DNA from: an uncultured Planctomycetota bacterium
GTDB taxonomy: Bacteria > Planctomycetota > Phycisphaerae > UBA1845 > CAIVHJ01
DNA length: 64,000 nucleotides
Assembly (NCBI GenBank): GCA_942492115.1
Contig: CALODL010000010.1
Location: 1,635-65,634, forward strand
Direction: 5' to 3'
Of the stretch, positions 159 through 47,650 are shown one piece after another. Under the pieces are notes generated by a model, which was given only the letters and a program-made list of their open reading frames with translations, was not told where the DNA came from and searched no databases. The first letter of the stretch is position 1, and the number at the start of each line of letters is the position of its first letter. Both the position numbers and the translations under genes were made by a program.

Positions 159-2095
159 TCACCATGAACGCACGAGACGCGCCGAATTGAAGCACACGAA
201 TGTACTCGACACGACGTGCAGGATCAGAGCGAACCACAGGGGCAGATCTGCCCCAGGCTGACCACCGCGGCTTCGGCCAGAACGATATACGCGATGCCGA
301 AGAGCAGGTTTTGCCAGATCACGCGCATGGTCGCACGGCTGAGTTTGACGAGGAATGGCAGGCGCGCGACAAATCGCTGCTCATCAGGGCTATGCTGGCC
401 GAATTGATCGCCACATCGCTGCCCGCGGCTCCATGGCGATACCGAGGTCACCCGCAGCCAATGCCGGAGCATCGTTGACTCCATCGCCTACGACCGCCAC
501 TTTATGGCCCCTTTCTTTCAGGGCCGACACGATATCGAGTTTTTCTGATGGCAGGACCTCTGCGTACACAGCAGTGCAACCCAGCTCGTTGCCAACACGA
601 TTGGCCACTGCTGTACGGTCACCGGTCACCATGGTGAGGTTGTTGATGCCAAGTTTGGGCAAGTCGATCAGCGCCGCGCGGGCTTCAGGACGCGTGCGAT
701 CCTCGAGCCCGATCCACCCGATGCAGGTCTTCTCGCGCACGACATACAACACACTGAGCCCTTCGGATTCCTGATAATCCGGATTGTCGAGGAGGCTCAT
801 GTCCGCGCCGTGTTCGCGCAACCAGGTCGCGCGGCCGACCATGACCTCGCGACCATCCACTGTGCCGCTAACGCCCAGACCGGCGGTCTCCTTGAAATTC
901 TTGACCTCGGTGATAGACAACTTGGCGCGACGGGCGACGGCTACGACAGCCCGAGCAATCGGATGCCGACTGGCATTCTCGACAGCAGCCGCGTACTTCA
1001 GCAACTCACCTCCATCGATACCCGGACCAGGCTTCATCTGGCTGACCGACAGTTCCCCGGTGGTCAATGTACCTGTCTTGTCCAACACCATCGCTGTCAG
1101 ATTGCGGGCATGTTCCAGACTGACCATACTCTTGATCAGAATACCGAGACGTGCGGCACACGACAGAGCAGCAACCATGGCTGTCGGTGTCGCAAGGATC
1201 AACGCACAGGGGCAGGCAACTACGAGCATCTTGATGGCGGTGCGAATGCCGGTGCCATCATCCATGGTGAAATACCATACGATCAGGGCCAGCATCAGAA
1301 TCGTTGGCGTGTACCACCCTGCATATTGATCGATGACCTTCATGAGCGGAATGCGCGTCCGTTCGGCATTCATGATGAGTTCCTGGACACGTCCCAGAGT
1401 CGTGTCACTCCCCGCCTTGGTCACCTCGACCTCGAGCAGGCCTGTCACGTTTACCGTACCGCCGAAGACTTCATCGCCGACCTGTTTGTCGACGGGCAGC
1501 GACTCGCCGGTAATATTCGCCTGGTTGATCGTCGACATTCCACTGACGATCTGACCATCGGCCGCGATGTTGTCACCGGGGCGAACTCGGATGCGATCGC
1601 CGGGCACCAGCGTCTTGGCCGCAACTTCGACTTCAGAGCCCTCGACGATCTTGTGCGCCTTCTCGGGAGTCAACTTGATGAGCGATTCGATAGCCGCGCG
1701 GCCCCCATGGCGGCGCGCGACTCGATCAGCTCGACGATGATCATGAAGAAGGCGATCAGGCCGGCCTCCTGGTACTCACCGATCGCGATCGCAGCCCCAA
1801 CGGCCATGGCCACCAACTCGTCCATGTGCATGACGCCATGCCACAGGTTCTTCAAGGCGGTCCAGATCAGTGGCAGTCCAAGAAGCAGGGCGCCCGCCAG
1901 GGCCATGAAGTCCGCGTGCGTGTTACGCTCAACCTGCTCGCCCGAGATCTGAACGAGTTGGGTCTGATCCGGGTAGATCAACGGTGCCAGGTATGACAAG
2001 AAAACCAGCACCCCGCCCAGCATCATGGTGAACAGCAGGAGGCGGGCGGAAAGGTTCTGCTTCTGCAGGGACTCGTGGACGTGGTCGTGGGCCAT
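159..2095 (-). pseudogene. Heavy-metal translocating P1B-type ATPase (CadA/ZntA/CopA-like), interrupted by at least 4 single-base frameshifts
   Basis: ORF 1670-2095 is the His-rich N-terminus and TM helices (MAHDHVHE...), ORF 390-1673 is the actuator/P-domain ('VLDKTGTLT', 'VGDGVNDAPALAA') and ORF 224-484 carries 'LSRATMRVIWQNLLFGIAY'. These are consecutive pieces of one ATPase in different frames. Manual translation across the junctions restores continuity at ~1690 (G5 run), ~440 (GG vs GGG), ~370 (GCGCGC) and ~230 (C4 vs C5), and the restored tail '...LWFALILHVVSS...NSARLVRSW' ends at ~159. Confidence 0.6.
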
Positions 2096-2369
2096 CGCAT
2101 GCTCCAGCTCAGTGAGCCAGCTCTAATGTTTCTAATCCAAATAATGCGCGCACGCGGCAGCGGGGACGCAGCCAATGCCATATACTACGTCAGTGAGCCC
2201 GCCCGGGTTCACCGGTCGTCATATGGGCCCGAGTCGCCTCATTGACCCGCCCGGGGCGACCGCTATACTGGAACTATATCCGTGAAGCGCACAAGCTTAA
2301 GTACAACATACCCCACGGGCCGACGGGCCGCGTGGCTGGTCCATCCGTCCAAGAGAGGGAGATGATTCG

Positions 2370-4569
2370 ATGAACCGGGAGCATCTGCGGACTGCGTGCG
2401 GTGCGGCTGTCGCCTTGGTGCTGTGTTTGCTCACAGCCCCTCCAGCTTCGGCCCAGACTTCCGCTGACGAGAACCGGGATCTGTTCGCCAACTTCCTGCA
2501 CAATGCCGTTCTGGGCAAGTTTGATCGCGCCGATGCCTTCGCGCAGAAACTCATCGATAACAACCCCGACCCGCTCGAGGTCATGCGCTATGCCGACGAA
2601 CATCGCAACGCGCTCAAGACGCTCATCCTGCTGGTCAATAATGAGGTCGTCAGCGACAGCGCCAAGACGATCCTGGGGATCATTCGTGAAGGCGAAAGCT
2701 TGCAACGTCAGGACCCCGAACGCATCAAGCTGAACATCGAGAAGCTATCGAACGACCCCCTCGCCGAATTCAATGCCATCAACCGCCTCAAGGAATCGGG
2801 CGAATACGCAGTCCCGTGGCTGGTGGCAACATTGCTCGATTCGAACAAGAAGGACCTGCACAACCGCATCGTCCGGATGTTGCCCAAGATGGGCAAGGAC
2901 GCCGTGACACCTTTGACGACCGCCCTGGCAATGACGGACGACGAGACGCGCGTACTCATCATTCGCGCCCTCGGTCAGATTGGCTACCCGCAGGCCGCTC
3001 CCTTTCTACTTGCCGCCGGAGCAGCCCCCGATATCTCACCCGAGATGCGCATGATCGTCGAAGAGGCCCTGCTGGACATGGGCTACACCGGCCCACGCGA
3101 CCCTTCTGCCGCGTTCCTGGCCCTTGCTCGACAGTATTACGTCAACCACGGCTCAGTACGTCCCGATCCGCGTAACGCAACGGCCAACTCCTGGTACTGG
3201 AACAACAACAGCCTGGAGCGTATCGCCGTGCCGGTGGAGATATTCGACGAAGTCATGGCCATGCGCAGCTGCGAGCGTGCCCTGGACCTCGACGCAAACA
3301 GTGGAGAAGCGATTGCGATTGGGCTGGGCTCCAATATCCGGCGTGAAGCAGATCTCGGCATGATCGTTGAGTCGGACGAGCCCAGTGAGCTGGCCGCCCT
3401 GGATACCACCAAACCGGACGATTTCCCGCGTAGCTGCCTACTTCGCGCGTGCCGCCGGACCGCGTTATTGCCACCGCGTTCTCGATCTGGCTCTGCAATA
3501 TCGCGAACCGGCTGTCGCCCTTGGTGCAATCGCCGCGCTGCGGACCGTCGCCGGCGCCAGTAGCCTGGTCGGCAGTGAGGACTTCAAGCAGCCACTCGCT
3601 TCGGCGTTGACCTTTCCGGACATGGTCGTGCGCATCAAGGCCGCCCTGGCCCTGGCGAACGCCATGCCGACAAGGCCGTTCAGCAGTGCCCACCGCGTAG
3701 TGCCCTCACTCGCCGAGGGCCTTGCCCAGCAAGGTGGTGACAACCTGCTGGTCATCGATCCCGACCCGCGTAACCTCAATCGGATCATGAGCGCCATCCG
3801 CTCCAATGGCTCGAACGCCATCGGTGAGACGACGTTCTACGGAGCACTCGAACGGGCCCGTGTCGATATGCCCGGGGTGTCAGGCATCTTGCTCGCCAGT
3901 GACGTGTTTTCGCCCCAGCTTCCTGCGGCCATCGCCACGTTGCGGGCCGACAATATCTATCGCATGACTCCGGTCGTCATCCTGATGCGTGATGGCGAGA
4001 CACCCGAGATCAAGGACCTGCTGGCCCAGGATGATGGCCTGGCAGCAATCGAGTCCGACGCGGATGCAGACAGCCTGGCGGCCGCATGGACCGATCTCTC
4101 GGAAGCAGTTGGCCAAACCCGCCTGCACAGCGAGTCCGCCCTCGAGCTGGCACTGGCCTGCGCCAAGGCGCTGCACGATCTCGCCATAGCGCACTCCGAG
4201 ATCCTCGACTTCCGCGTCGCAGAAGGAGCACTGATCGCCGCCGCCGCCAGCCCGGAGGAGGCACTGCAGACGGAGGTGGTCAAAGTTCTGGCCATGTTAC
4301 CCAGCAGCTCGGCACAACAAGCCATCGCGCGACTGGCGCTGTCCGAGGATGCCTCAGGCAGCCTCCGAATCACAGCATTCGGGGCCCTGGCGGATTCGGC
4401 AAAAATCAACGCCAATCTGTTGTCCGAGGGTCAGGTCGACCGCCTGATTTCGATCACCCTCGACGAGGACGATCTCGCCCTGCGCACTGCAGCCAGCCGG
4501 GCACTGGGCGCGCTGAACTTGCCGAGCAATAAGGCGGGTGCAATCATCGAGAAGTACGAACGCGGCTAG
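2370..4569 (+). CDS. Secreted HEAT/PBS-lyase-repeat protein (~730 aa), read across one frameshift near 3415-3425
   Basis: GAGAGGGAGA RBS before the ATG at 2370; N-terminal signal peptide (ALVLCLLTAPPASAQ). ORFs 2370-3563 and 3367-4569 overlap in different frames. Repeats of the HEAT type (AAxALGxIG...) run through both, and the frame switches between '...TKPDDFPR' and 'VAAYFARAAG' at a CGCG/CGCGG site. Confidence 0.6.
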
Positions 4570-6984: not shown

Positions 6985-7042
6985 TCCAGCAGTTCGTGCG
7001 GCCGAAGCGCCGAAGGTGCGCGTTATGCGTCGACGTCCGATA

Positions 7043-7312
7043 TCACGCCCCGTCCGGCGTGGCCGAGGCAACCAGGCCGTTGACCACCGCGCCCAGAATG
7101 GATTCCAGGCCGTCGCTCGCAGCACCGCTCGCATCCCCCGAGAACAACCCACCCATGAGCGAGGTGACCCCTACGCCCAGACCCGGGAGGGCCACCTGGC
7201 GGAATTCACGGGCTGTTTCTCCTGTAAAGCACAAACTCACGTTGAGTGTCCCGGCTGCACACGCCACAAGGGCGATTCGATTCAACTTGCACCATGTTTG
7301 ATTGACTGTCAT
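7043..7312 (-). CDS. Small hypothetical secreted Gly/Ala/Ser-rich protein (89 aa), divergent from the sigma-54 activator gene
   Basis: AGGAGG lies 7 nt upstream of ATG(ACAGTC). The N-terminus resembles a signal peptide (MTVNQTWCKLNRIALVACAAG) and the mature part is low-complexity. It could be a spurious GC-rich ORF. Confidence 0.25.
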   Translation of the reverse strand: MTVNQTWCKLNRIALVACAAGTLNVSLCFTGETAREFRQVALPGLGVGVTSLMGGLFSGDASGAASDGLESILGAVVNGLVASATPDGA

Positions 7313-7512
7313 CACCATACCTCCTGTGGCCCATGTCATCGGACACCCGGGACCATCCCCATGACCTGCGCGGCCCCGCGGATTCGAGCGGCCGGCGGCA
7401 CAGCGCAGATCCTGCCGGCGAAGGACGCTCGAGCCTCCATGGTTGCTTGGCCGGCGTTGCGGTGGTAAATATTACCCACATTTCCAACTACCTTTGATAT
7501 GGACGCAACGAT

Positions 7513-9013: not shown

Positions 9014-10303
9014 TCATGACGCAGTCGCGATGGTTTCCAGTGGAGTGCCGTGCGCCGAGAGTCGTTGGGCCCGTGCCATCCGATCAGCCCAGACGAACAC
9101 GCCCAGAGGGAGCAGGATGAGCGGCTGAACGCCGATCCACTGGGCCACGCCATAGATCGGGAACATCCCAAACCCGATGATGAGTAACACACGACCAGCA
9201 ACTGACAGTCCTCCCTCCAGCGCCAACTGCTGGTCGACCAGTAGAACTACCGGCAGGATCAGTAGCGCGACCTCGTAGTACTGGGCATGGGGACTGATGA
9301 GCAGCATGCCTGCGCACACCTGAGCCCAGCGTGCAGCCAATCTCGACCCATCCGCCATCGTGCCGCGCCACTGCCACAGCAAGCGCACGATGATCAGGCC
9401 CACCGCGCCCCATGACGCCCACGTCCACAGCCTGGCGGCCTGGGCACGCCCGGCGACTTCGAGAACTTGGACCACTGAGAAATCGACGGCCTCGGTGATC
9501 GAGATGTGCGAGAAACCGCTCACCACGCGCTCGTGCTGACGATAGACACCGCCGATGGCGGATATCATCTCACCGGGCCATCCCCAGCCGCAGCCGACGG
9601 CACCGACTGCGTAGAGCACGCCCCCCACAAGGACGGCCGTCAACACTGTCCGCCACTGGCGCTGCATCGCAAGCAAGCCGATGAACGGCAGTGCGTATTG
9701 CGGCTTGAATAACAACAGGCCCAGAGCCATGCCGGCCAGCACCGCCTGACCGCGGACACAGGCCTGATATGCCACCACGAGCAACAACAGGGTCAGCGCA
9801 GCGTTTTGACCGCCCGTGACCGTCTGGCTCATGGGAAACCACAGCATTCCGATCATCGCAACGATGTTCCGATGCGGATAGAGGGCCGACAAGTGCCGTG
9901 CGAGGAGGAATATGGCGCAAGCGTACGCCGCGATCATTCCAATGGTATTGACGTGTAACGCCGCGAGATAAGGCAGGCGTGCGAGCACGCTGTAAGCCAC
10001 TGCAACTGGAGCCGGGTTAATGTAGTACGCCAGACCATCGAGATGCTCTGGCGCGAGTACCGCGTCCTGTGTCCTGCGCTGACGATGAATGTCGTAGAGC
10101 TCTGTGCCGTGTCCCTCCGCGACGATACGACCTGCCAGATAGAAGGCCATGAAGTCCCGCCCGACCACGACTCCATCATCGACGACGAGGCGCGGCAACG
10201 TCGCGTAGAACAGTACGAGGGCCAACAGCCACCCGGCGACTCCACTGACGCCCACAAGTCGCAACACCGCGGGTGAGGTCAAACGCATGATCACGGCAGA
10301 CAT
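9014..10303 (-). CDS. Polytopic GT-C-fold membrane protein, DUF2029/GT87-like (polyprenol-phosphate-sugar dependent glycosyltransferase candidate)
   Basis: 429 aa with about 10 predicted TM helices. An N-terminal loop DF motif ('VVGRDFMAFYLAG') and 'GGQNAALTLLLL', 'FKPQYALPF', 'ISPHAQYYEVALLILPV' are shared with the paralog at 10443-11780. Confidence 0.55.
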   Translation of the reverse strand: MSAVIMRLTSPAVLRLVGVSGVAGWLLALVLFYATLPRLVVDDGVVVGRDFMAFYLAGRIVAEGHGTELYDIHRQRRTQDAVLAPEHLDGLAYYINPAPVAVAYSVLARLPYLAALHVNTIGMIAAYACAIFLLARHLSALYPHRNIVAMIGMLWFPMSQTVTGGQNAALTLLLLVVAYQACVRGQAVLAGMALGLLLFKPQYALPFIGLLAMQRQWRTVLTAVLVGGVLYAVGAVGCGWGWPGEMISAIGGVYRQHERVVSGFSHISITEAVDFSVVQVLEVAGRAQAARLWTWASWGAVGLIIVRLLWQWRGTMADGSRLAARWAQVCAGMLLISPHAQYYEVALLILPVVLLVDQQLALEGGLSVAGRVLLIIGFGMFPIYGVAQWIGVQPLILLPLGVFVWADRMARAQRLSAHGTPLETIATAS

Positions 10304-10442
10304 GCCAGTTGTATCGACTCACGGACCCCATCCCAGCACTATCAGGATGTGCGGCCACCGCGTCTGCAGAGTTATGAGACGCCGACAGAGTGAACCATGA
10401 TAGAAGCGGCGATGCACCTCGTGATCCGGGGACAGCTGGTCG

Positions 10443-11780
10443 ATGTCATGGACGTCTACGAGGGATCCGTTCATGCAGTCACCTACGCACATATCCGTCG
10501 GGCGCCATCAGCAGATGAAACGACTGATGCACATGGCCACGTCGACGCCGATCCTCCTGGCTTTCGGGCTGCTACTGGCGTCTGGAAGTATATGGACCAT
10601 GGGCCGCTACGTCTCATCACTCGATGGTGTAACCGACGCCCAGGGTCAGCTCGTCGCGGGTGACTTTCTCGCGTTCTATACCGGCGGTACCATCGTGGGC
10701 TCGGGTCACGGCCCAGCCCTGTACGATCTGTCCTACCAGCACGACATCGAGCATACTCTGATCGGTGTACCAGACTCTCCATGGCAACCGTACGTCAATC
10801 CGCCCTTGCTCGCCCTGGCCTTGAGTTGGGTCAACGGTGTGCCATTCGCCACGGCAATGCGTTTGTTCTGCGCCGCAATGTGCGCTGCCGCAGCCGGAAG
10901 TCTGGTATTGGCCGGCAGGAGCCTGCCGGCGCTGCGCGGCGATAGAATGCGGTGGCTGGCCGTGTGCTTACTGGTGCTGTCATTCCATCCCATTGCACGC
11001 ACAATGCTGGGGGGACAGAACACCCCGTTGACACTTGTCCTGCTGACCGGTGTCTTCGCAGGACTCCATCACCGCCACAGCGCACTGGCCGGCGTGTGCC
11101 TGGGGTTGCTCAGTTACAAGCCACAGTTCGCGTTGTTCATTGGCCTTGTGGTCCTGGGGCAACAGCGCTGGCGTGTAGCCGTGTGGGCCATCGCCATCGG
11201 CCTCGCCCACTACGTGGTCGCCGGGGTGGTATGCGGGTTCGATTGGCCATGGGCCATGCTCGATGCTTTGGCGATCTATCAACCACTCGAGGCGGCATCC
11301 AGCTACTACACACACATTGCGATCCTTCCCGTTTGCAACCACAGCTTGCCAGCGCCATGGAACCACCTCGTCGCCGCGACGGCAATCACGGCGGTCATTG
11401 GACTGTTTGTCGTCGCCGTTCTACGAGCCCGGCACTCCGACAAGCTCGTGTTCGGTGCCGCCGTGTGCGTAACGATGCTGATCAGCCCGCACCTGCAGTT
11501 CTATGACGTTGGTGTGCTCGTGCTCCCCGTACTCATCGGTCTAGATGATCTGTGCGCACGGGGCCAGCAACCATCCGAATCCCTGCGGGGCCTGTTGTGC
11601 GCGGGATACCTCGCATTCCCAATCTATGCGTTCAGCCATATGCTTGGTTTCCAACCCCTGATCCTATGGCCCCTGGGCGTGTTCCTGTGGCTGTGCCACC
11701 GGCTGTGGACCGCAGGACAGCCCAGTGTCATACCCGCCAGCAACCCGAGCATCGACCACTGCGAGAGGGTGCCAGGATGA
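10443..11780 (+). CDS. Paralogous DUF2029/GT87-like GT-C membrane protein (start uncertain: 10443, 10473 or 10515)
   Basis: 'GDFLAFYTGG', 'GGQNTPLTLVLL', 'YKPQFALFIG', 'ISPHLQFYDVGVLVLPVL'. Its stop overlaps the next gene's start (ATGA at 11777-11780). Confidence 0.55.
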   Translation: MSWTSTRDPFMQSPTHISVGRHQQMKRLMHMATSTPILLAFGLLLASGSIWTMGRYVSSLDGVTDAQGQLVAGDFLAFYTGGTIVGSGHGPALYDLSYQHDIEHTLIGVPDSPWQPYVNPPLLALALSWVNGVPFATAMRLFCAAMCAAAAGSLVLAGRSLPALRGDRMRWLAVCLLVLSFHPIARTMLGGQNTPLTLVLLTGVFAGLHHRHSALAGVCLGLLSYKPQFALFIGLVVLGQQRWRVAVWAIAIGLAHYVVAGVVCGFDWPWAMLDALAIYQPLEAASSYYTHIAILPVCNHSLPAPWNHLVAATAITAVIGLFVVAVLRARHSDKLVFGAAVCVTMLISPHLQFYDVGVLVLPVLIGLDDLCARGQQPSESLRGLLCAGYLAFPIYAFSHMLGFQPLILWPLGVFLWLCHRLWTAGQPSVIPASNPSIDHCERVPG

Positions 11781-12565
11781 GTGACACCATTATCGTTGTG
11801 CCCTGCTACAACGAAGAAAGCAGGTTGGATCTCACGCCGTTCGTTCAGCATGCTCAGCGGTTTTCGCGGACGCGGTTCCTGTTCGTCGACGACGGCAGCA
11901 GCGACGATACGTCCGATCTCATTCTGACGGCCGGGGTCGCGCGTACCGAGCAGATCGACTTGCTGACGATGCCACAAAACATGGGCAAAGCCGAAGCCGT
12001 GCGCCATGGATTCCAGGAGGCATTCAGCTCGGCTCCACGCTTTGTCGGATTCTGGGATGCCGACCTGGCAACCCCACTCGATGCCATTCCAGAATTCCAG
12101 TCCGTTCTCGAAGGCTCATGCGATCTCGACATGGTCTTCGGAGCACGCGTGCAGTTGCTCGGCAGGTCGATCGAACGCCACATGTGGCGCCACTACGTTG
12201 GGCGGGTGTTTGCCACAGCCGTCTCGATGGTGCTGCGGCTGCCGGTTTATGACACACAATGCGGGGCCAAGTTGTTTCGCAACGATGGCCGACTGGTGGA
12301 AGCCTTTGAAACACCGTTCCTGGCGCGGTGGGTTTTCGACGTCGAGATCATCGCCCGCTACATGAACATGCATCGCCGTGACCATCGACCTGCAGTGGAG
12401 GGCTGCATCTATGAGCTGCCTCTCGACCACTGGGAAGACGTTGCGGGCTCGAAGCTCAAACCGTCCGATTTTCTGACTGCAGCGTTGGACCTCGCGCACA
12501 TCGCGTGGACCTATCAACTGAGTCCAGCGCTGGCCGACCCGCATGCGTGGCCTGCGAAAGGCTGA
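11777..12565 (+). CDS. GT2 polyprenol-phosphate sugar synthase (Dpm1/Ppm1/GtrB-like)
   Basis: 'IIVVPCYNEE', 'FVDDGSSDDT' (DxD) and 'FWDADLATP' (DAD). No C-terminal TM segments. The ATG at 11777 overlaps the upstream stop, consistent with translational coupling. The ORF track starts at 11552, but the conserved region begins at MSDTIIVV. Confidence 0.75.
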   Translation: MSDTIIVVPCYNEESRLDLTPFVQHAQRFSRTRFLFVDDGSSDDTSDLILTAGVARTEQIDLLTMPQNMGKAEAVRHGFQEAFSSAPRFVGFWDADLATPLDAIPEFQSVLEGSCDLDMVFGARVQLLGRSIERHMWRHYVGRVFATAVSMVLRLPVYDTQCGAKLFRNDGRLVEAFETPFLARWVFDVEIIARYMNMHRRDHRPAVEGCIYELPLDHWEDVAGSKLKPSDFLTAALDLAHIAWTYQLSPALADPHAWPAKG

Positions 12566-14851: not shown

Positions 14852-15562
14852 ATGCGGATCGACGTGCTGACATTGTTTCCAGAGGTCTTCGAGACCTACC
14901 TCGAAACAAGCATCATCGGTCGAGCCCGGTCATCGGGAATCCTTGAAGTTGTTCTGACGCAAATCCGGGACTTCGCCACGGACAAACATCGGCGTGTCGA
15001 TGATCGCCCCTTTGGCGGCGGGCCTGGAATGGTCATGATGTGTCCCCCACTGTTCGATTGCGTCGAACAGGTGGAATCGGCAGGAGAAACGCCCCACCGG
15101 ATTCTGTTGAGTCCCCAGGGGCGGCCGTTGAGTCAGGAGCGGGTCGCCGAGCTTGCCGACAAGCAACGCCTGCTTTTGATCTGTGGGCACTACGAAGGCT
15201 TTGACGAACGGATCCGATTGGGTCTCAATGCTGAGGAGGTTTCGATTGGCGACTACGTGCTTTCGGGCGGTGAGCTGCCCGCACTCGTCCTGATCGATGC
15301 TGTCACGCGACTGTTGCCTGGTGCCCTGGGCGACGATGCCTCCGCTGAAAACGATTCATTCTCCCGCGGCCTGCTGGACCACCCACAGTACACGCGGCCC
15401 AGGGAGTTCAACGGTATGGAGGTCCCGGAGATTCTGCTCTCCGGAGACCATGCGAAGATAGAACTGTGGCGCCGCGAGCAATCACAAGCCCGCACGCGCG
15501 AGCGACGCCCTGAGTTGTTGGCCGATAGTACGACCGATCCCGAACCCGGAGCAGAACCATGA
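14852..15562 (+). CDS. trmD: tRNA (guanine37-N1)-methyltransferase TrmD
   Basis: '[14 protein letters not shown]', '[15 protein letters not shown]', '[21 protein letters not shown]'. Confidence 0.95.
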
Positions 15563-15996
15563 GAAATCAAATCATCAGCCTGGTCGAAGCAAAGCACCAG
15601 AGAGACATCCCCGAGTTTCGGGTTGGTCAGAGTGTCAGCGTCAATGTCCGCATCAGGGAAGGCGAGAAGGAACGCATCCAGGCGTTCAGCGGCGTCGTCA
15701 TCGCGCGCAAGGGAACCGGCCTCGGCGAAACGTTCAAAGTGCGGCGTATCGTCGCCAATAAGGGCGTTGAACGAACCTTCCTGCTCCACTCACCATTCAT
15801 TGCCAGCATCGAGGTCACCCGCACCGGCAAGGTTCGCCGGGCCAAGCTGTACTACCTGCGTGATCGCGTCGGCAAGTCCCGCAAACTGCGTGAGAAGCGT
15901 ATCAGCCAGGCCGGCCGTGCAGCCGCTGCCGAGGCACGAAAGACCGCGCGAAGCAAAGCCTCTGGCGAACCGCGGGAATTGGCCGCGGTGGAATAG
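15559..15996 (+). CDS. rplS: 50S ribosomal protein L19 (with a basic C-terminal extension)
   Basis: '[49 protein letters not shown]'. Its start overlaps the trmD stop (ATGA). Confidence 0.95.
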
Positions 15997-17519: not shown

Positions 17520-17540
17520 ACGGGGACCACATCGTGCGGT

Positions 17541-32677: not shown

Positions 32678-33365
32678 GGGTACCTCCTGGAGTTGAATTG
32701 GCTACGAACTCGTACTCTTCACGCGATATGACTTCAGCAACACCATTGTTGTAAGCAACAATGACGACGCGGTCTCCAACCTCGAACGAATCGTCGGAAC
32801 GACGGGCCATGGCGGGAATGAACCGTTCCGCCCTGGCAACTTCTGCGCTGACCTCACCCGTGCGCCCCGGAGCGACGGCGACACTCACGCGCGCGGCCCG
32901 GTCGACATAGTCCTCGTGCCGTGTTGCGCTGTTGCCACCTGTCTTCTTGATGATACGGAACAGCTGCTGAACGACCTGACCACCCACGATACCGGCCCCC
33001 CCCGCAACGATGGCGATCCACGGCGGTGCAACGTCGGTCATGAACACCAGTGCCGTCCCAATCCCGCCCATGATGGCCAGAAAGAAAATCCCGAACCGCA
33101 ATGACAGCCACGTGGACAATCCAAATGCCGAGTCTCCGGCGCCATCGACGAACAAGTCGCCGTCCGCATCCGCATCGACGTCCAGGTCGATGTCCACATC
33201 ACCCAGGTCACCCGCATCGGCACCGTCCGCATCACCACCTGCGGCCACGGAGAACATCAGCAACCCGCCCCCGAGGACCAGGCTGGCAATGTAGACCGTC
33301 GGCATCACGGCCCACATACCCTCCCCGTCGATCGCACTCAGTAGATCAATGATCATCATGTGCAC
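32643..33365 (-). CDS. NfeD-like membrane protein (YqiJ family; TM region + C-terminal OB-fold), partner of flotillin
   Basis: Multiple TM helices and a C-terminal beta-domain 'FEVGDRVVIVAYNNGVAEVISREEYEF'. Its 3' end overlaps the flotillin start. Confidence 0.75.
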   Translation of the reverse strand: MHMMIIDLLSAIDGEGMWAVMPTVYIASLVLGGGLLMFSVAAGGDADGADAGDLGDVDIDLDVDADADGDLFVDGAGDSAFGLSTWLSLRFGIFFLAIMGGIGTALVFMTDVAPPWIAIVAGGAGIVGGQVVQQLFRIIKKTGGNSATRHEDYVDRAARVSVAVAPGRTGEVSAEVARAERFIPAMARRSDDSFEVGDRVVIVAYNNGVAEVISREEYEFVANSTPGGTHEHVHANRTSK

Positions 33366-33673: not shown

Positions 33674-34069
33674 TCAGTAGGCTTCTTTGAGGTCTTCTTT
33701 TTCGTATTCCTTGAGCGCCGGTTCCTTCTGGAAACGCTGCCACAGGCTGCGGACCCCCTGGTAGTCTCGCGCGTAACGGTAGGCGTGCGGAATGGCCTTG
33801 TTGATCGGGGCCGTAGTATCAGTGGTCTCACCGATCTCAGAACGTTCGACGACCCAGATGTTGACGCAAGCCTCGTCCTGGCCGTAGTGCTCACGAGCCA
33901 GTTCCACAGCAGCCTCCCGATCCGGCGCCTGCAACGCACCGGCGTGGATGTGGGGAGAACCGTGCGTCTTGCGCGTAAACACTTCGAACAACTTCATGTC
34001 CGGTTCGGGCGTCAACGGCTCGGATGCCTGGGACGCTCCACCGATTTGTCTGATTCTGGAAAGAGGCAT
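33674..34069 (-). CDS. paaB: 1,2-phenylacetyl-CoA epoxidase subunit B (PaaB)
   Basis: 'KLFEVFTRKTHGSPHIHAGALQAPDREAAVELAREHYGQDEACVNIWVV' parallels PaaB. The start was chosen at MPLSR; MKLFEV at 33997 is the alternative. Confidence 0.75.
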   Translation of the reverse strand: MPLSRIRQIGGASQASEPLTPEPDMKLFEVFTRKTHGSPHIHAGALQAPDREAAVELAREHYGQDEACVNIWVVERSEIGETTDTTAPINKAIPHAYRYARDYQGVRSLWQRFQKEPALKEYEKEDLKEAY

Positions 34070-34095
34070 GACTGATCGAGTCCGTTCAGAATTGC

Positions 34096-35109
34096 TTAGT
34101 TCTGGTGTGTCATGATCGCCTGACGCACCCAAATCCCTTGCTCATAGCTGAAGCGCCGGAGAGCCACACGGTCCTTGTTCAGCGGGCCATTGCCGCGAAT
34201 GACGCGGTAGAACTCGTCCCAATCGGGCGTGCTGAAGCCCCAGTGCCCGGTCTTGTCATCACGCACGGACAGGGGATCCTCGACGAGGTTCGGGTTGGGC
34301 TGTGACGGATCGTCCATGACCGGCCCCGGCAGATTGACTTTGAGCCCCAGTGCCTTGGCCGCAGGGGTGAAGCGGTCGACGAACTTCTGCCGCAACGTGT
34401 CGTTGGTCGCGGTCTTGATGCGCCAGCGCATCATGAGCGAACCGTGGGTCGATTCCTTGTCGGGCGGCCCGAAGAACATCAGGCACGGCCACCACCAGCG
34501 GTCGAAGGCAGACTGCATCATGGCCTTCTGGCGCGCCGTGCCGCTCATGAGCGTGAGAACCATTTCCTCACCGGACTTGAAATGGAAGGCCTCTTCCATG
34601 TTGATGCGTTTCATCGTCCGGATATAGGGCCCGTAGCTGCCCTCGGCGAGGGACTTCTGGTTCATGATTGCCGCACCATCGACCAGCCACTGGATCGCGC
34701 ACACATCCGCCCACGTGGGCGCGGGATAATTGAATACATTGTGGTACTTCGTGCGCCCTTCGCACAAGTCGCGCAGCATTTCATCACGCGGCTTGCCGAG
34801 ATCCTCGGACACGCGGTAGAGCATCTGACCGTGGCCGACCTCGTCCTGGACCTTGGCCATGAGGGCCAGTTTCCGGCGCAACGAAGGTGCACGATTGATC
34901 CACTCTCCTTCAGGTAGTGCGCCCACGATTTCGGAATTGGCGTGGTGCTCGGCAACACGGAGCATTCCGAGGCGATAGTCCTCGGGCATGTAGTCTTCAC
35001 GTTCGATCAATTCCCCCCGTGACACACGCTCCTCGAATTGCATCAACTGATGCGGATCTTCGGGATGCTTCAGGTCCTGAGGGGGCTCATAGCCAGCACT
35101 GACGCTCAT
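34096..35109 (-). CDS. paaA: 1,2-phenylacetyl-CoA epoxidase catalytic subunit A (PaaA, ferritin-like di-iron)
   Basis: 'EDYMPEDYRLGMLRVAEHHANSEIVGALPEGEWINRAPSLRRKLALMAKVQDEVGHG' and 'WLVDGAAIMNQ'. An AAGAGGA RBS precedes the ATG at 35107-35109. Confidence 0.9.
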   Translation of the reverse strand: MSVSAGYEPPQDLKHPEDPHQLMQFEERVSRGELIEREDYMPEDYRLGMLRVAEHHANSEIVGALPEGEWINRAPSLRRKLALMAKVQDEVGHGQMLYRVSEDLGKPRDEMLRDLCEGRTKYHNVFNYPAPTWADVCAIQWLVDGAAIMNQKSLAEGSYGPYIRTMKRINMEEAFHFKSGEEMVLTLMSGTARQKAMMQSAFDRWWWPCLMFFGPPDKESTHGSLMMRWRIKTATNDTLRQKFVDRFTPAAKALGLKVNLPGPVMDDPSQPNPNLVEDPLSVRDDKTGHWGFSTPDWDEFYRVIRGNGPLNKDRVALRRFSYEQGIWVRQAIMTHQN

Positions 35110-35439
35110 GGGAATCCTCTTCACAAGGCCTTGGAGTACACAATCCATTTTATGTGATGAGCGTCCAACCGGCCACCCCCCTCGTCCTGCTCTGCGGAGA
35201 TAGCGCTCACCCTTGCACGGGGCGCGCCTCGCCAGACATGGGCCGTGTCTCTCTGCGCTGGCCTGTGCAAATTGCTCAGCCCGTCGACCGCACCTCACGG
35301 GCCAGGAGACACCTGCGCTGCTGACCGCGCGGCCGTGCCCGCGGGCGCGATCGGCAGCAGCGTTTGCTGGACATCAGTCGCTATTGGGGATTAAATGAGC
35401 GCCAGCGTTGGCAACTTCATCCCTTACAGGAATTGACCC

Positions 35440-38914: not shown

Positions 38915-38938
38915 ACCCGGGAACCACTGGAACAACCC

Positions 38939-39235
38939 ATGGCGGATACACCACCCTACGAATCCGTGTGCATCTACATCGCACATGTCCTTGTCGATCG
39001 CGCCGATGGACCGACCAAGATCTATTGTTTCGTCCCGGCGCCGTCGGAATCCGCGGCCGACGTACGGCTCCGCGAGGCACTCGCGAGCCGCAACCTCAAG
39101 TACAAAGCGACGGAATTCATTAAGTCATACTGGGACTACGAATGGGATACCAAGAAGCTCCAGAAGCAATATGATCGTCTCGCCGAAGAGGCATACAAGT
39201 CGCGTGAAGTGACCATCGCTGACCTGGATGCATGA
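38939..39235 (+). CDS. Hypothetical protein (98 aa)
   Basis: Intact ORF between the TldD pair and the thiolase. No recognisable motif. Confidence 0.45.
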   Translation: MADTPPYESVCIYIAHVLVDRADGPTKIYCFVPAPSESAADVRLREALASRNLKYKATEFIKSYWDYEWDTKKLQKQYDRLAEEAYKSREVTIADLDA

Positions 39236-39292: not shown

Positions 39293-40489
39293 ATGAGAAG
39301 AGCAGCAATTGTCACCGCCCTGCGCACGCCGATCGGCCGTTATGGAGGCGCATTGAGCGCAGTGCGCCCAGACGACCTTGCGGCCCTGGTCATCCGCAGT
39401 GTTGTCGAGCGCAGCGGCATCAACTCGGCTCGAATCGATGACATTTATTTCGGCGCCGCCAACCAGGCTGGCGAGGATAACCGCAACGTGGCGCGGATGG
39501 CAGCACTGCTCGCCGAACTCCCCGAGTCAATCCCCGGCAGTACCGTTAACCGGCTGTGTGCCTCCAGCCTGGATGCCATCAACATCTGTGCCCGCATGAT
39601 CGAAGCCAACCATGGCGACATCATGATCGCAGGAGGCGTGGAGAGCATGTCGCGGGCCCCGTTCGTCGTGGCCAAGGGAACGACTGCGTTCTCGAGAACC
39701 GCCGAGATGTACGACACCACAATAGGCTGGCGCTTCACGAACCCCAGGCTGGCTCAGATGCACCAGCCGTTCTCGATGGGTGAAACAGCAGAGAACGTGG
39801 CGCAGCGTTATGAACTGACCCGCCTCGAACAGGATGAATTTGCAGTCACCAGCCAGGCCCGCTGTGCGACGGCGGTCAGAGCCGGTCGTTTTCTCGACGA
39901 GATCGTCGCCGTACCCGTGCCCCAGCGTAAGGGCGATCCCGTGATCGTCGAAAAGGATGAGCATCCACGTCCCGACACGACCCTCGAAGCTCTGGGGAAA
40001 CTTCGACCCGCCTTTGCCAGAGACGGTACGGTCACGGCCGGCAACGCCTCCGGTGTCAACGATGGCGCTGCAGCACTGCTGCTGGTCGAAGAGGAGCTGG
40101 CCCGCGAACAGGGTTTCGAGATCCTTGCGATCGTTGGCCCGTCGGCATCCGCTGGAGTCACTCCTGATATGATGGGGCTTGGTCCAATACCGGCTACCCG
40201 CAAAGCCCTCGACCGCGCCGGACTGACCGTTGACGACCTCGACGTCATCGAACTCAACGAGGCGTTCGCTTCCCAGTCGCTGGTCTGTCTGCGCGAACTG
40301 GGACTCGACCCGGAAAAGGTCAATCCCAACGGGGGTGCCATCGCCCTCGGTCATCCACTGGGTTGCAGCGGTGCACGCATTGCGACGACTTTGATTCACG
40401 AAATGAACCGCGGTAACGCCAAACGCGGACTGGCGACGATGTGCGTTGGCGTCGGCCAGGGTGTTGCGACATTGTTCTACCGCGACTGA
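39293..40489 (+). CDS. Acetyl-CoA C-acyltransferase (thiolase; PaaJ/beta-ketoadipyl-CoA thiolase-like)
   Basis: 'AAIVTALRTPIGRYGGAL', 'NRLCASSLDAI', and C-terminal 'GHPLGCSGARI'/'CVGVGQGVA'. Confidence 0.9.
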   Translation: MRRAAIVTALRTPIGRYGGALSAVRPDDLAALVIRSVVERSGINSARIDDIYFGAANQAGEDNRNVARMAALLAELPESIPGSTVNRLCASSLDAINICARMIEANHGDIMIAGGVESMSRAPFVVAKGTTAFSRTAEMYDTTIGWRFTNPRLAQMHQPFSMGETAENVAQRYELTRLEQDEFAVTSQARCATAVRAGRFLDEIVAVPVPQRKGDPVIVEKDEHPRPDTTLEALGKLRPAFARDGTVTAGNASGVNDGAAALLLVEEELAREQGFEILAIVGPSASAGVTPDMMGLGPIPATRKALDRAGLTVDDLDVIELNEAFASQSLVCLRELGLDPEKVNPNGGAIALGHPLGCSGARIATTLIHEMNRGNAKRGLATMCVGVGQGVATLFYRD

Positions 40490-41709
40490 GCACGATTCAC
40501 AGCGGCACCGTATCGATCTGCCGGCGCAAATCGGTCGTCGTCGACTGTCTCGTTCAGAGCCGTCAGCACGGCTCCCACGCGCGCATGGCCCAATGCAGCC
40601 GCCCATTCCAGGAGCCCGCGCGGATAGTTCGTGCCCTTCTGCATGGCCAGGTCGATGTCCGCATCTGTCGCCACCCCTTCTTGAGCTGCAAGGGCCGCCT
40701 CATTCATCAGGGCGCACAGAATGCGCGCAAAGACATATCCTGACTCGGCCTTGATGGAGTAACCACCGGCCCTGGCAAGGTCGGACAACGCTGCACGAAC
40801 GGCCACGGGAATGTCGAACCCGCGACACTCGGAACGCAATCCGAGTTTGACCTCGTCGCCACGATAGACGTACACACCCTCACCGGTCTTGCGGCCCAGC
40901 TTGCCCTGTTGAACGAGCGACGCCTGGATCGGCGACGGCTTGAAGCGTGACGGCTCGCCTGACTGGACGTACACGCTGCAGGTCACAGCGTAGTTGATGT
41001 CGATCCCCACGAGGTCCATCAACTCGAATGGTCCCATGCGGAACCCGCCGACCTCTTTCATCACCAGATCGATGCTGAACGGATCACCGCGGCCCTCTTC
41101 GACGATACGCAGGGCCTCGAGATAGTATGGCCGCGCCACGCGGTTGACAATGAAGCCGGGCGTATCCTTGACCCGCACCGCGGTCTTGCCCCAGGCGACG
41201 GCGAGATCAAACACGCGCTGTACGGCAGCGGGCTGTGTGCCGCGTCCGGCGATGACTTCGACCAGAGGCATCAGTGGTGCCGGATTGAAGAAATGCATGC
41301 CACATACGCGCTCCGGAGCGCCCAACTGTTCTCCAAGTTGACTGACCGACAGGGACGACGTGTTGCTGGCAATGACCCCCGTCGGCCCCAGAAGACGCAG
41401 CACTTTCGACAACACGGCAACCTTGGCTTCCATCTTCTCGACAATGGCCTCGATCACCACGGTGCAATCGGCAAGGTCCTGGGGCGCGCCACTTGGATGC
41501 AGCCGCGCTGCGCAGGCCTCTGCCTGCTCGACCGTAAGCTTGCCCTTCTCGACCAGCCGCGCAAACCGCTTGGCGATGCCGGCGATCGCCCGTTCAGCCG
41601 TCGCCAGGTCAACCTCCAGAACCCGAACAACATGGCCGCACGTCGCCGCCACCTGCGCAATCCCCGCCCCCATGGTTCCACCGCCAATGACTCCGATGAT
41701 TTCGCTCAT
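40477..41709 (-). CDS. 3-hydroxyacyl-CoA dehydrogenase (PaaH-like, with a duplicated C-terminal domain)
   Basis: 'IGVIGGGTMGAGIAQVAA' NAD-binding motif, 'GFIVNRV', and a second C-domain repeat. Confidence 0.9.
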   Translation of the reverse strand: MSEIIGVIGGGTMGAGIAQVAATCGHVVRVLEVDLATAERAIAGIAKRFARLVEKGKLTVEQAEACAARLHPSGAPQDLADCTVVIEAIVEKMEAKVAVLSKVLRLLGPTGVIASNTSSLSVSQLGEQLGAPERVCGMHFFNPAPLMPLVEVIAGRGTQPAAVQRVFDLAVAWGKTAVRVKDTPGFIVNRVARPYYLEALRIVEEGRGDPFSIDLVMKEVGGFRMGPFELMDLVGIDINYAVTCSVYVQSGEPSRFKPSPIQASLVQQGKLGRKTGEGVYVYRGDEVKLGLRSECRGFDIPVAVRAALSDLARAGGYSIKAESGYVFARILCALMNEAALAAQEGVATDADIDLAMQKGTNYPRGLLEWAAALGHARVGAVLTALNETVDDDRFAPADRYGAAVNRAQSR

Positions 41710-41781
41710 GTCCGTGGTAACCCTCGCATGGTACGGTGTGGTGATGCAGCCCAGTCATCGGGCTCTCGACGCCCCCTCGGT

Positions 41782-42605
41782 CTACATCTGCAGGATGTCG
41801 CGCGCAACTAACTCCCCCTTGAACTCCGGCGTGCGCTTCTCGATGAACGCCCGCACTCCTTCGAAGTGATCCTTGGTCTTGCCGGCCGTCTCCTGAACAA
41901 ACGCCTCGGCCTCGAGTTGCTCCTCGAGCGTATTGTCGAACGTCTGGTTCAGCAGGCGCTTGGTCAATCCTAAGGCCCGCGTCGGCATCGCCGCCAGTTG
42001 ATGCGCCCAGGCATGCGCGGCGTCACTCAATTCGTCATCGGCAACGACCTTGTTGGTCAACCCGAGGCGCAGGGCGTCGGCCGCATTCACCCGGTCTCCC
42101 GTGAAACACAACTCCATGGCCTGCCCCAAACCGACAAGCCGCGGTAACGTAAAAGTGCTGCCGCTGTCAGGAATCAGGCCTACATTGACGAACACCTCGA
42201 TCAGCTTAGCGCCCTCCGCCATGACCCGCAGATCACAGGCCAACGCCAGACTGCATCCGGCGCCTGCTGCTACGCCGTTGATGGCTGCGATAATGGGTTT
42301 CTCGATTTGCCGCATCTTGAGGATGACCGGGTTGTACCCTTGCGCAGGCGCTTGCCGAGCACCGGCACGAAGTCCCCGACATACTGGCCCTCCAGATCCT
42401 TGAGGTCCTGACCCGAACAGAATGCCTTACCTGCCCCAGTGATGACCACGGCGCGTACCGCTGCATCCTTGTCACTATTCTTGAGCGCCGCAAGCAACTC
42501 GTCAGTCATGCGCTCGTTGAAGGCATTGAACACATCGGGACGGTTGAGCGTTATGGTTGCCACACTGCCATCAACCAGGTACGTAATCGTTTCGTAGTCA
42601 GCCAT
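41782..42605 (-). CDS. Enoyl-CoA hydratase/isomerase (crotonase family), interrupted by a 1-bp indel at ~42318-42326 (GGG run)
   Basis: ORF 42270-42605 (N-terminal half, 'ITGAGKAFCSGQDLK') and ORF 41782-42315 ('MRQIEKPIIAAINGVAAGAG') join as '...LGKRLRKG|YNPVILKMRQIEKP' if one G is added. Confidence 0.7.
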
Positions 42606-42619
42606 AGGAGATCTCCGAG

Positions 42620-43390
42620 CTACTTGCCCTTGAATTGTGGCCGCCTCTTTTCAAAAAAGGCCCGCATGCCTTCTTTCTGGTCCTCGGACGCAAACAGCAT
42701 ATAGAACAGTTTTCGCTCATACTCGAGGCCGTCGGACAACGACATTTCGAACGCCTTCAGCACTGACTCTTTGGCCAGCCTCAACGCCAGTGGTGGCTTG
42801 GTACACAGCTCGCGAGCCACTCCCAGGGCGACGTCATAGAAATTCTCTTTGGGCACAACACGAGAGACCAGGCCGGCGTCACGCGCTTCATGGGCCGTCA
42901 AGAAGCGCCCCCCCAGCACCACGTCCATAGCAATGGCCTTACCGACCGCGCGGGTCATACGCTGCGTTCCTCCGGCACCAGGGATCACCCCAATATTGAT
43001 CTCGGGCTGACCGAACCGCGCCGATTCCGAAGCGATGATGATGTCACACAGCATGGCCAGCTCGCAACCGCCGCCGAGGGCATAGCCACTGACGGCAGCG
43101 ACGATGGGCTTCGAGATACGCTTGATGCGCTCCCACCGTGCGAACTGATTGCGCTCGTACATATCGAAGGCCGACGCCTCGGCCATGTCCTTGATATCTG
43201 CTCCCGCAGCCCACACGCGTTCGCTTCCAGACAGCAGGATGGCATAGATCTCCGGATCATTGTCGTATGCGTCGAGCTGATCGACGAGTTGTTTCATGAG
43301 GTCGAGACTGAGTGCGTTGAGCACATCTGGCCGGTTAAGCTTGATGATGCCCACGTGACCATCGCGTTCTGCCAGGATGGGCTCGGACAT
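42620..43390 (-). CDS. Enoyl-CoA hydratase (crotonase family, PaaF-like)
   Basis: 'AAGADIKDM', 'ISKPIVAAVSGYALGGGCELAMLCDIIIA', and C-terminal 'EGMRAFFEKRRPQFKGK'. Confidence 0.85.
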   Translation of the reverse strand: MSEPILAERDGHVGIIKLNRPDVLNALSLDLMKQLVDQLDAYDNDPEIYAILLSGSERVWAAGADIKDMAEASAFDMYERNQFARWERIKRISKPIVAAVSGYALGGGCELAMLCDIIIASESARFGQPEINIGVIPGAGGTQRMTRAVGKAIAMDVVLGGRFLTAHEARDAGLVSRVVPKENFYDVALGVARELCTKPPLALRLAKESVLKAFEMSLSDGLEYERKLFYMLFASEDQKEGMRAFFEKRRPQFKGK

Positions 43391-43422
43391 GACGTTTCCT
43401 CCGTTTCGTGAACGACAACAAC

Positions 43423-44259
43423 TCACGGTTGCGGTCGCAGCGCATCATAATCGACGCGGCGTTTTTCGTTGAATGCCTCGAGGCCGGCATGGACCTCTGG
43501 AGCACGATTGTGCACGGCAAGCCAGTCACGGGCGTGGCCGATGGTCATGCTCCAGGAGAAATCTTTCCAGAAGTTGAGCTGTTGCTTGGTGTAGCGCATG
43601 CACTCGGGAAGTTTCTCGGCCAGTCGCGTACACATGTCATCGACCTCCGCATCCAGGGAGGCTCGTGGAACGACACGATTGACCAGCCCCCAATCCAGTG
43701 CCTGGGCTGCCGGAATCTCGTCACAGAGCATGAGCACTTCACGAGCGCGGCGATCACCGATCATCAACGGCAGCCACTGCGTTGCCCCAGCCGCCGCGAC
43801 GCTACCCATGGCCGCACCGACCTGTTTGATATAGATGTCGTCGCACGCCACGGCCAGATCACACGACATGTTGAATTCGTTGCCTCCCCCCACGACGATG
43901 CCGTTGAGCCGCGCCACCGTCGGTTTCCCGATCCCGCGTAGCAGTTCGTGTGCGCGGCAGAACTCGCCCATCCACTTCCAGTACTCATTGGGTGCGTCGA
44001 CGTATTCCCTCTGTTGCTCTTTGAGATCGGCCCCTGTACAAAACGCCCGGTCGCCAGCGCCGGTCAGGACCACCACTGCCACACTGTCGTCCCACGAGGC
44101 ATCGAGAAAAGCCTGCTGCAGCTCCTGCAGGGTCGGCAAGTCTACACAATTCAACACGGCAGGACGATTGATGGTCACCGTGGCTCGGCGCCCATCCTTG
44201 ACGTAGATGATGTTCTTGAAATCGAAGTCCGCAGGGTCACGCGGTGCGGTCGAAGTCAT
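43423..44259 (-). CDS. MenB/BadI-like crotonase-superfamily enzyme (enoyl-CoA hydratase/isomerase or CoA-ester ring hydrolase)
   Basis: 'VARLNGIVVGGGNEFNMSCDLAVA' and 'AVHNRAPEVHAGLEAFNEKRRVDY', resembling the MenB/BadI branch. Confidence 0.8.
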   Translation of the reverse strand: MTSTAPRDPADFDFKNIIYVKDGRRATVTINRPAVLNCVDLPTLQELQQAFLDASWDDSVAVVVLTGAGDRAFCTGADLKEQQREYVDAPNEYWKWMGEFCRAHELLRGIGKPTVARLNGIVVGGGNEFNMSCDLAVACDDIYIKQVGAAMGSVAAAGATQWLPLMIGDRRAREVLMLCDEIPAAQALDWGLVNRVVPRASLDAEVDDMCTRLAEKLPECMRYTKQQLNFWKDFSWSMTIGHARDWLAVHNRAPEVHAGLEAFNEKRRVDYDALRPQP

Positions 44260-44283
44260 GTCCTGACGCTCCTGTCCACAGGG

Positions 44284-44676
44284 TTACTGATGGCGTTCGA
44301 TAAGACTGTCGAGAACTCTCTTGGGCAGGACACGTTGATGCTGTACCCCACGACCAATAAGTCGCTCGCCATCATATGCTCGCACATCACAGATTACGCG
44401 TTTCCCGTCGACTGCAGTGCACAAGGCCTCGACACGCACGACCTTGCCGACCGGCGTCGGCGCCAGGTGGTCGATCGACAGGTGCGTACCGATCCCCTCT
44501 TCGTCCGCGTCGAGATGGGGGGCCAGCACCTTCCTGGCCGCCAGTTCCATGTGGTGCGCCAGCGACCACGTGGAGTACACCCGGTGCACGATGATCCCGT
44601 CAAACGCCGGACACATGTCGGGCGTGACTTCGATCTCGACCGTAGCACTCACGCCAGGCTGCAGGGCTGCGTGCAT
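44284..44676 (-). CDS. Hotdog-fold acyl-CoA thioesterase (PaaI/FlK-like)
   Basis: 130-aa ORF with a hotdog-like pattern ('VHRVYSTWSLAHHMELAARK...', 'GKRVICDVRAYDGERLIGRG'). Confidence 0.65.
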   Translation of the reverse strand: MHAALQPGVSATVEIEVTPDMCPAFDGIIVHRVYSTWSLAHHMELAARKVLAPHLDADEEGIGTHLSIDHLAPTPVGKVVRVEALCTAVDGKRVICDVRAYDGERLIGRGVQHQRVLPKRVLDSLIERHQ

Positions 44677-46700: not shown

Positions 46701-46989
46701 GTGTAGTGGTTTCCTTGGATCACTGGTTCATGAACGGGCATGAATCCAAACTGTAAGAAGGCGACCTGCTAAAATGGCTGCCTGCCAACCTTGATGGTTC
46801 GACGTCAGCACTACGACGTGTACAAGTCGCTAGATTGTCAATAGGATGCGGCCGTCGGCGCCTGGAATCTTGGGGCGGTAGTGTCCCAGAAATCACAGGG
46901 CCGGTCAAGAAATGGCCGACGGTAATGAAGTACCCAATTTGACATGTTGTCACGGCTGCGGTTTGCGCGAAGTGACGTCCAGGCGAGCG

Positions 46990-47650
46990 ATGAACAAGCG
47001 CACTATGAACAGGGCTCTGGCCGATGAACGGTTCGTGCGTCGTGCACGACGCGCCTTGTCCGCTCATGATGCGATCATGTCGCGGATCATCAAGACTGTG
47101 GGTGCGTTTCGCCCCAATACAGTCGACGGTGTTTTCGAGGCACTCGTGCTGTCCATCGTACATCAACAGGTATCGATGAAGGCAGCGCAGACGATCTGCC
47201 GACGCGTGCGCGATCTCTGTCCCGCGCCGGTGTATTACGGTCTCCGCGATGACACAATGTTCCCTGGACGACCTGCGCGGCGCCGGATTGTCACGCCCCA
47301 AGGCTGCTTACGTCCACAACGTATGCGCTCATTTCGCCGACAGGCGAGTGAACCCTCGTCGACTGCCCCATCTGTCCGACGCAGACATCATCACCTGCCT
47401 CAGCGCCATCAAGGGAGTTGGGGTGTGGACCTCAGAAATGATTCTCATCTTCACCCTGCAGCGTCCCGACGTGTGGCCGGTCGATGACCTCGGCTTGCGC
47501 CAGGCACTGCACCATGCTTACCAGGTACCCCGGGAGGCCACGCGGGATCGTCTCGTGCAAGCCGGTGAGCGTTTCCGCCCCTATCGCAGTATCGCAACAT
47601 GGTACTTGTGGAGCAGCCTGAACACGGGGATCACGCCTGGATTCACATGA
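46990..47650 (+). CDS. HhH-GPD DNA glycosylase (AlkA/Mag-like), interrupted by a frameshift near 47255-47275
   Basis: ORFs 46912-47487 and 47249-47650 overlap in different frames. The second carries the HhH-GPD core 'LSAIKGVGVWTSEMILIF...RPDVWPVDDLGLRQAL'. Confidence 0.6.

Follow-up and report, generated by a model that had tools for sequence, protein, structure and literature searches.

We examined a 64-kb window (the whole 64,000-nucleotide stretch of DNA analysed here) of a planctomycete (Phycisphaerae-like) draft contig, in which four otherwise well-conserved genes are broken by 8 small insertions or deletions (indels). Five of the breaks lie in a gene for a P1B-type heavy-metal ATPase, with one each in the neighbouring HEAT-repeat gene, in paaG and in a gene encoding an AlkA-type glycosylase. 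A single small edit per break suffices, and the repaired products then match their homologues across the junctions. Weighing the evidence below, we regard it as probable that the breaks represent a locally poor stretch of assembly consensus together with two isolated residual errors, not mutations of the organism.

Each of the broken fragments (P0012, P0122, P0125, P0128, P0129 and P0130) has its own gene call on the deposited 350,942-bp NCBI contig. They are found there residue for residue, as 427-amino-acid and 141-amino-acid pieces of the ATPase, a 397-amino-acid piece of the HEAT protein, 111-amino-acid and 177-amino-acid pieces of the PaaG-like crotonase, and a 191-amino-acid piece of the glycosylase. 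The breaks are thus a property of the deposited sequence and did not arise when the window was extracted.

Eight frame breaks in four genes

Using tblastn of homologues against the window, we recovered frame switches at the sites named in a preliminary description of this DNA, and every repaired junction was bridged without interruption by alignments to homologues and to solved structures. The preliminary description had reported at least seven indels, all of 1 bp. All seven are present as frame switches, but a fifth ATPase break, at approximately 164–168, had been missed, and for one event (362–368) a 2-bp GC gain is the best reading. Its approximate positions can be refined from 230 to 251–254, from 370 to 362–368, from 440 to 431–432, from 1690 to 1699–1701, from 3420 to 3431–3436, from 42320 to 42336–42339 and from 47265 to 47224–47240. 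The expectation that the shifted-frame translations match the protein families was confirmed, with Pfam, PDB and homologue alignments continuing across the junctions. Two details were not borne out: the ATPase gene does not end at about 159, where the break near 166 creates a false stop, but at a TGA at 74–76; and the HEAT event, which had been assigned to a CGCG/CGCGG run, is one extra base within AGCTG, with no CGCG run.

The ATPase coding region occupies 74–2095 on the minus strand in six frame segments, with matches to Pfam E1-E2_ATPase and Hydrolase. Five edits yield a 2022-nt open reading frame encoding 673 amino acids with no internal stop. The closest orthologue of this product, P0121, which comes from locus L003 in the Logan assembly of run ERR12120954, is likewise 673 amino acids long, and the two proteins share 90.2% identity. 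Three-frame translation of the minus strand follows the path 2, 1, 0, 2, 1, 2, and P0121 correspondingly passes through frames -1, -3, -2, -1, -3 and -1 in tblastn: residues 1–132 align at 2095–1700, residues 131–555 at 1706–432 and residues 556–578 at 432–364 with 100% identity, and the remainder extends down to 77 with one further pair of switches. The homologue P0001 separates this final pair, aligning at 370–239 and 248–168. Against PDB 3rfu and 7qbz, the repaired protein aligns as a single stretch through the first four junctions.

As in the P1B-type ATPases CopA, ZntA and CadA (PDB 3rfu, 4umv and 7qbz), the repaired product aligns from end to end and carries all the family motifs (TGES, CPC, DKTGT, HP and GDGVNDAP, each intact), with the family match holding only after the five frame corrections. 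Unlike these proteins, the deposited gene lies in six frame segments and the repaired protein lacks an N-terminal HMA domain, with just a His-rich sequence (MAHDHVHES) at its start. In several sources its homologues are named Cd2+/Zn2+-exporting ATPase.

Reading along the coding strand, with lost bases marked by a caret and gained bases in brackets, the first break (1699–1701) is one missing base in GCC^CGC, beside a G5 run (plus-strand C5, 1702–1706); in the DNA alignment, GCCGC in the window stands opposite GCCCGG in L003, and all homologues read G-A-R-A-A-I. At the second break (431–432), one base is missing from ATGG^GA, leaving GG instead of GGG in the motif GIAMGAAGSD, where PDB 7qbz aligns GIAMGAAGSDVA without a gap. 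At both of these sites, the run in the L003 DNA alignment is exactly one base longer than that of the window. The third break (362–368) falls in a GCGCGCG run with two extra bases, TCGCGC[GC]CTG. It is probably a 2-bp GC gain, because all homologues have DLSRLPF or DLSKLPF here and none carries an additional residue, and the alignment to L003 has a 2-base gap here; a 1-bp loss is formally possible, and under that assumption the 7qbz alignment needs a one-residue gap. The fourth (251–254) is one base missing from CTGGG^GCA, a run of 4, where L003 carries CTGGGAGCG and tblastn places the frame change between 239 and 248. The fifth (164–168, at approximately 166) is one extra base in CGTT[C]ATGGT, within TTCATGG and in no run; beyond it, the C termini of homologues, LVR(F/Y)GEQP...SPAVAS, continue in another frame to the TGA at 74–76. 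The five indels (-1, -1, +2, -1 and +1) sum to zero, so that start and true stop share a frame. We dismissed this as a meaningful signal, given that it would arise by chance about 1 time in 3.

Divergent from the ATPase gene, at 2370–4569 on the plus strand, lies a gene for a secreted HEAT-repeat protein of about 733 amino acids once repaired. Pfam HEAT_2 is found in both of its halves, and homologues of 716–759 amino acids span the two. The break (3431–3436) is one extra base, CGT AGC [T] GCC, in neither a homopolymer nor a GC repeat. Homologues read FPRSAYFARAAG or FPRALYF at this junction, and the tblastn high-scoring segment pairs end at 3434 in frame +3 and start at 3433 in frame +1. ATPase and HEAT homologues share contigs of 39,297, 588,940, 8,203 and 7,142 bp in Phycisphaerae and Planctomycetota genomes. 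L003 (1–2381), too, carries the start of the HEAT gene, and the sister species sampled by run ERR12120954, in which the ATPase is 90% identical in protein and approximately 79% identical in DNA, has the same ATPase–HEAT arrangement. This conserved arrangement suggests that the divergent pair may be functionally linked, a link that is annotated nowhere.

The paaG-like gene (41782–42605, minus strand) encodes an enoyl-CoA hydratase/isomerase of 274 amino acids when repaired, with Pfam ECH_1 matched at positions 4–64 and 72–250 in different frames. Positions 4–264 of the repaired protein align to 2ej5, 3hrx and E. coli PaaG (4fzw_C), and its homologues carry the Joint Genome Institute (JGI) name 2-(1,2-epoxy-1,2-dihydrophenyl)acetyl-CoA isomerase. 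At 42336–42339, a Gly codon lacks its third base (AAG GG^ TAC; plus-strand CCC at 42337–42339), where homologues have LERSYNP or LRSTYHP compared with LRKGYNP here. In tblastn, the match of the homologue P0299 stays in frame -3 as far as 42342 and resumes in frame -2 at 42336.

Phenylacetate genes occur in the window in three blocks, on minus and plus strands and with unrelated genes between them: paaD and paaC at 27436–28751, paaB and paaA at 33674–35298, and genes for a thiolase, a 3-hydroxyacyl-CoA dehydrogenase, paaG, two crotonases and a paaI-like thioesterase at 39293–44676. Neither paaE nor paaK was seen in the window.

The last affected gene (46990–47650, plus strand; start at 46990 or 47005) encodes an AlkA-type DNA-3-methyladenine glycosylase of the HhH-GPD family, about 214 amino acids long after repair. 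Pfam HhH-GPD (positions 28–101) is matched in the downstream frame only, and the fragments match residues 25–81 and 93–215 of PDB 2h56 in separate frames, with positions 17–207 of the repaired protein aligning to 2h56 free of gaps. The upstream frame matches 2h56 to residue 81 (approximately 47223) and the downstream frame matches 2yg8 from approximately 47237. The break is thus one extra base at 47224–47240, within GCGCCGGTGTATTACGG, and cannot be placed more precisely.

Clustering of the breaks and constraint on the ATPase

Six of the 8 events lie within 3273 nt (164–3436) and two genes (p = 5.9e-5 under uniform placement), and the five ATPase breaks fall within a 1.5-kb span (p = 8e-5, likewise). 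A uniform error process is therefore rejected, and whatever caused the breaks acted locally. The cluster crosses the intergenic region from the ATPase gene into the HEAT gene.

The rest of the window looks sound. Around 45 other genes have end-to-end domain or structure matches, as judged from five Pfam batches and a codon-usage frame plot. Genes that are intact elsewhere in the window include ffh, rpsP, trmD, rplS, and those for a TatD-family nuclease, a polyprenyl synthase, the 2-oxoacid dehydrogenase subunits E1 alpha, E1 beta, E2 and E3, a POT-family transporter, a Ser/Thr kinase and a 2320-amino-acid open frame, as well as paaA, paaB, paaC, paaD and the genes for the thiolase, the 3-hydroxyacyl-CoA dehydrogenase, two further crotonases and the thioesterase. 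PaaA aligns to residues 7–302 of the 311 of E. coli PaaA. No further hidden frameshifts were found with the codon-usage frame plot, the five Pfam batches or a structure–sequence check of PaaA. Long open frames without a family match, sound only as such, lie at 32643–33365, 38915–39232, 47718–48563, 56274–56936 and 60790–62415. With so many genes matching from end to end, the caution that any gene call in the window should be treated as suspect was too broad.

The ATPase gene is the informative one because it holds five lesions; the relaxed-constraint test covers this gene, the single-break genes having no close sister sequence. A relative-rate test with 13 outgroups counted 10 replacements specific to the window and 11 specific to P0121, and the window's ATPase departs from the other sequences at none (0) of the columns that are invariant among them. 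The ratio of non-synonymous to synonymous substitution rates (dN/dS) against L003 was 0.053 for the gene as a whole, and 0.05, 0.04 and 0.10 when three segments were taken separately.

Drift that lasts long enough for five indels to accumulate should also leave substitutions. Under neutral decay with five indels, 56, 28, 14 and 8 extra detectable replacements are expected at indel:substitution ratios of 0.05, 0.1, 0.2 and 0.35, respectively, and the corresponding probabilities of 10 replacements or fewer are 5e-18, 3.5e-8, 6e-4 and 0.018. The last of these ratios, approximately 0.35, is that of the most indel-rich bacterium we found (PMC8717266). A process producing almost exclusively indels thus fits the ATPase much better than drift, and consensus error arising from noisy reads is of this kind. 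Frameshift pseudogenes in neutral decay (PMC6054270) resemble this gene in their disrupted frames, in carrying several lesions in one gene and in having some of these at short repeats. Unlike them, the ATPase has no relaxed constraint (10 versus 11 replacements; dN/dS of 0.05) and no nonsense codon, and its length equals that of the orthologue.

Origin of the breaks

If the breaks are consensus errors, the stretch of approximately 3.3 kb at 164–3436, which extends over the ATPase gene and half-way into the HEAT gene, would have been built from poor or thin data, for example a long-read patch beyond the reach of short-read polishing or a low-coverage region, leaving about one indel per 550 bp. 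The events in paaG and the glycosylase would be two isolated residual errors, and the Cd/Zn-type efflux ATPase, the HEAT protein, PaaG and the glycosylase would all work in the organism. The clustering of six of the 8 events over two genes fits such a local quality problem, and the orthologue's one-base-longer runs at the first two ATPase breaks also speak for error. The nature of the other two affected genes points the same way, as there is no reason for them to be dispensable: paaG is broken in a phenylacetate pathway that is otherwise complete, with paaA, B, C, D, H, I and J and two further crotonases all intact, and the glycosylase is a DNA-repair enzyme. Residual indels that split open reading frames are known from long-read and hybrid genome and metagenome assemblies, and persist where short-read polishing cannot reach (PMC9262707, PMC8812927, bioRxiv 10.1101/2021.08.23.457338). 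The present breaks resemble them in being small truncating indels, each repaired by a single edit, in otherwise pristine coding sequence and with a patchy distribution.

The preliminary description had also favoured consensus error, on the grounds that all of the indels sat in G/C runs, with real slippage mutations as its alternative. The explanation is the best one here too; its homopolymer basis is weak. Breaks do occur at G/C runs of 2, 2, 3 and 4 bases and at one (GC)3. By length, the G/C runs of the window number 1255 at three bases, 280 at four, 67 at five, 12 at six and two at seven, plus a single C8. A technology whose errors depend on run length should strike the long runs first, and these are intact. 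In place of the homopolymer argument, we rely on the unrelaxed constraint in an ATPase with five indels and on the tight clustering over two adjacent genes.

Several observations weigh against consensus error. All 82 of the 82 G/C runs of 5–8 bases are free of frame breaks, so that the classic homopolymer signature is absent, and three of the events are insertions in or beside ordinary sequence. Errors concentrated at the longest homopolymers are the signature of 454, Ion Torrent or nanopore sequencing, and the lack of this signature argues against the simplest error model. In the literature, too, residual assembly errors concentrate in long homopolymers, whereas here the runs of 5–8 bases are intact and three of the 8 events lie outside clear runs. 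Five breaks in one gene are also what a decaying pseudogene looks like, and the conserved ATPase–HEAT neighbourhood makes a real joint loss of one functional module conceivable. Searches of a protein collection with the broken fragments as queries returned no Logan copy or independent assembly over any junction; since Logan copies exist for only 2 of 12 intact genes tested, however, the missing junction copies say nothing either way. The case for an artefact is an indirect one.

The chief competing explanation is that the indels are real and very recent, reflecting fresh inactivation of the ATPase, HEAT, paaG and glycosylase genes, with the ATPase and HEAT genes lost jointly as a module. The five breaks in the ATPase and one in a conserved neighbour, whose homologues share contigs with those of the ATPase, would suit this, as would the avoidance of the longest homopolymers and the two further intact crotonases that adjoin paaG. 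We nevertheless consider it rather unlikely. The restored ATPase frame has no excess of replacements, no changes at invariant sites and no stops, its dN/dS is 0.05, and five indels without substitutions require an indel:substitution ratio above any measured in bacteria (PMC4978911; PMC8717266). Moreover, a single frameshift already kills the gene, so four more would have to accumulate almost instantly. Whether through consensus error or recent mutation, the breaks are a known and ordinary kind of thing.

Tight clustering, a majority of +/-1 events at short G/C runs and the lack of accompanying substitutions would all be expected of a localized burst of real frameshifts over 0.1–3.5 kb, for example through error-prone repair synthesis near a DNA break, followed by hitch-hiking to fixation. 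Work on E. coli links such synthesis to many 1-bp indels at short G/C runs. This seems very improbable for the window, which bears no mark of a break or mobile element at this place; the two distant events would be left unexplained, and the burst would have had to reach the consensus despite knocking out two conserved genes. There is a slim chance that the indels are real and that the conserved module of ATPase and secreted HEAT protein, hit by a localized, substitution-free burst of frameshifts, preserves a natural trace of indel-prone repair synthesis over a few kilobases in an uncultured planctomycete. Programmed ribosomal frameshifting, transcriptional slippage or phase-variable switching at the breaks has nothing in its favour beyond the frame breaks themselves. 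No slippery heptamer or long A/T tract occurs at any break, the longest tract there being 4 bases or (GC)3; the runs are of 2–4 bases, and the orthologues are plain uninterrupted open reading frames. The anatomy of the sites effectively excludes such recoding, to which we assign a negligible probability, and we know of no precedent for five different recoding events in one gene.

We also noted that CCATGG occurs at or within a few bases of two ATPase breaks (431 and 1705), and that a third lies beside CATGG (161–170). A methylation-motif cause was rejected, as 37 other CCATGG sites are free of breaks and the motif was picked after seeing the data.

As deposited, the record would yield four pseudogene or split-frame calls, for the efflux ATPase, its HEAT neighbour, paaG and the AlkA-type glycosylase, whereas the organism most likely has these four genes intact. 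Metabolic or resistance inferences from this genome should use the repaired frames; the practical products of this analysis are repaired models of the four genes and a corrected catalogue of the eight sites. Applied to these sites, the homopolymer rule would have led to the wrong verdict; several indels in a gene without an excess of substitutions are better evidence of consensus error than sequence context.

Relatives in other data and further features of the window

In Logan, the metagenome run ERR9670067 contains two contigs that match the window with 100% identity, one (L004) over 1557 bases, corresponding to 17094–18650, and the other (L005) over 943 bases, corresponding to 15163–16105. 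The organism is therefore present in this run, which suggests that the genome is metagenome-derived. No literature on run ERR9670067 was found. Queries spanning junctions (the ATPase C terminus and a chimaera of four junction regions) returned no near-identical fragments, and no record encoding the window's MscS-like protein, Ffh or the ATPase fragment P0012 was found. A scan of species-representative genomes gave only two HEAT homologues, with 41–42% identity. At 90% identity or more, the only relative found was P0121, which is from a different species and intact. Homologues of the window's genes come from metagenome-assembled genomes of Phycisphaerae and Planctomycetota.

The window has a G+C content of approximately 60% and is densely coding; no tRNA genes or Rfam families were found in it. 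Two segments of 500–700 bases, at 6985–7497 and 55582–56273, have a weak coding signal and no family match on either strand, and may hold regulatory DNA or genes that are degraded or went unrecognised. The 2320-amino-acid open frame (48619–55581, minus strand) combines MopE-like copper-binding motifs, Ig-like domains and a concanavalin-like GH43_C2 domain with a weak match to glucose/sorbosone dehydrogenase.

SPFH/Band-7 paralogues are present as a tandem pair of about 560 amino acids each (18844–22202) and as a third gene of 450 amino acids, 9 kb away (31325–32677). The open frame without a family match at 32643–33365, just upstream of this third gene, holds the longest G/C run of the window, the C8 at 32996–33003. 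Finally, two divergent GT87-family glycosyltransferase genes (9014–11780) are followed by a GT2 gene (11549–12565).

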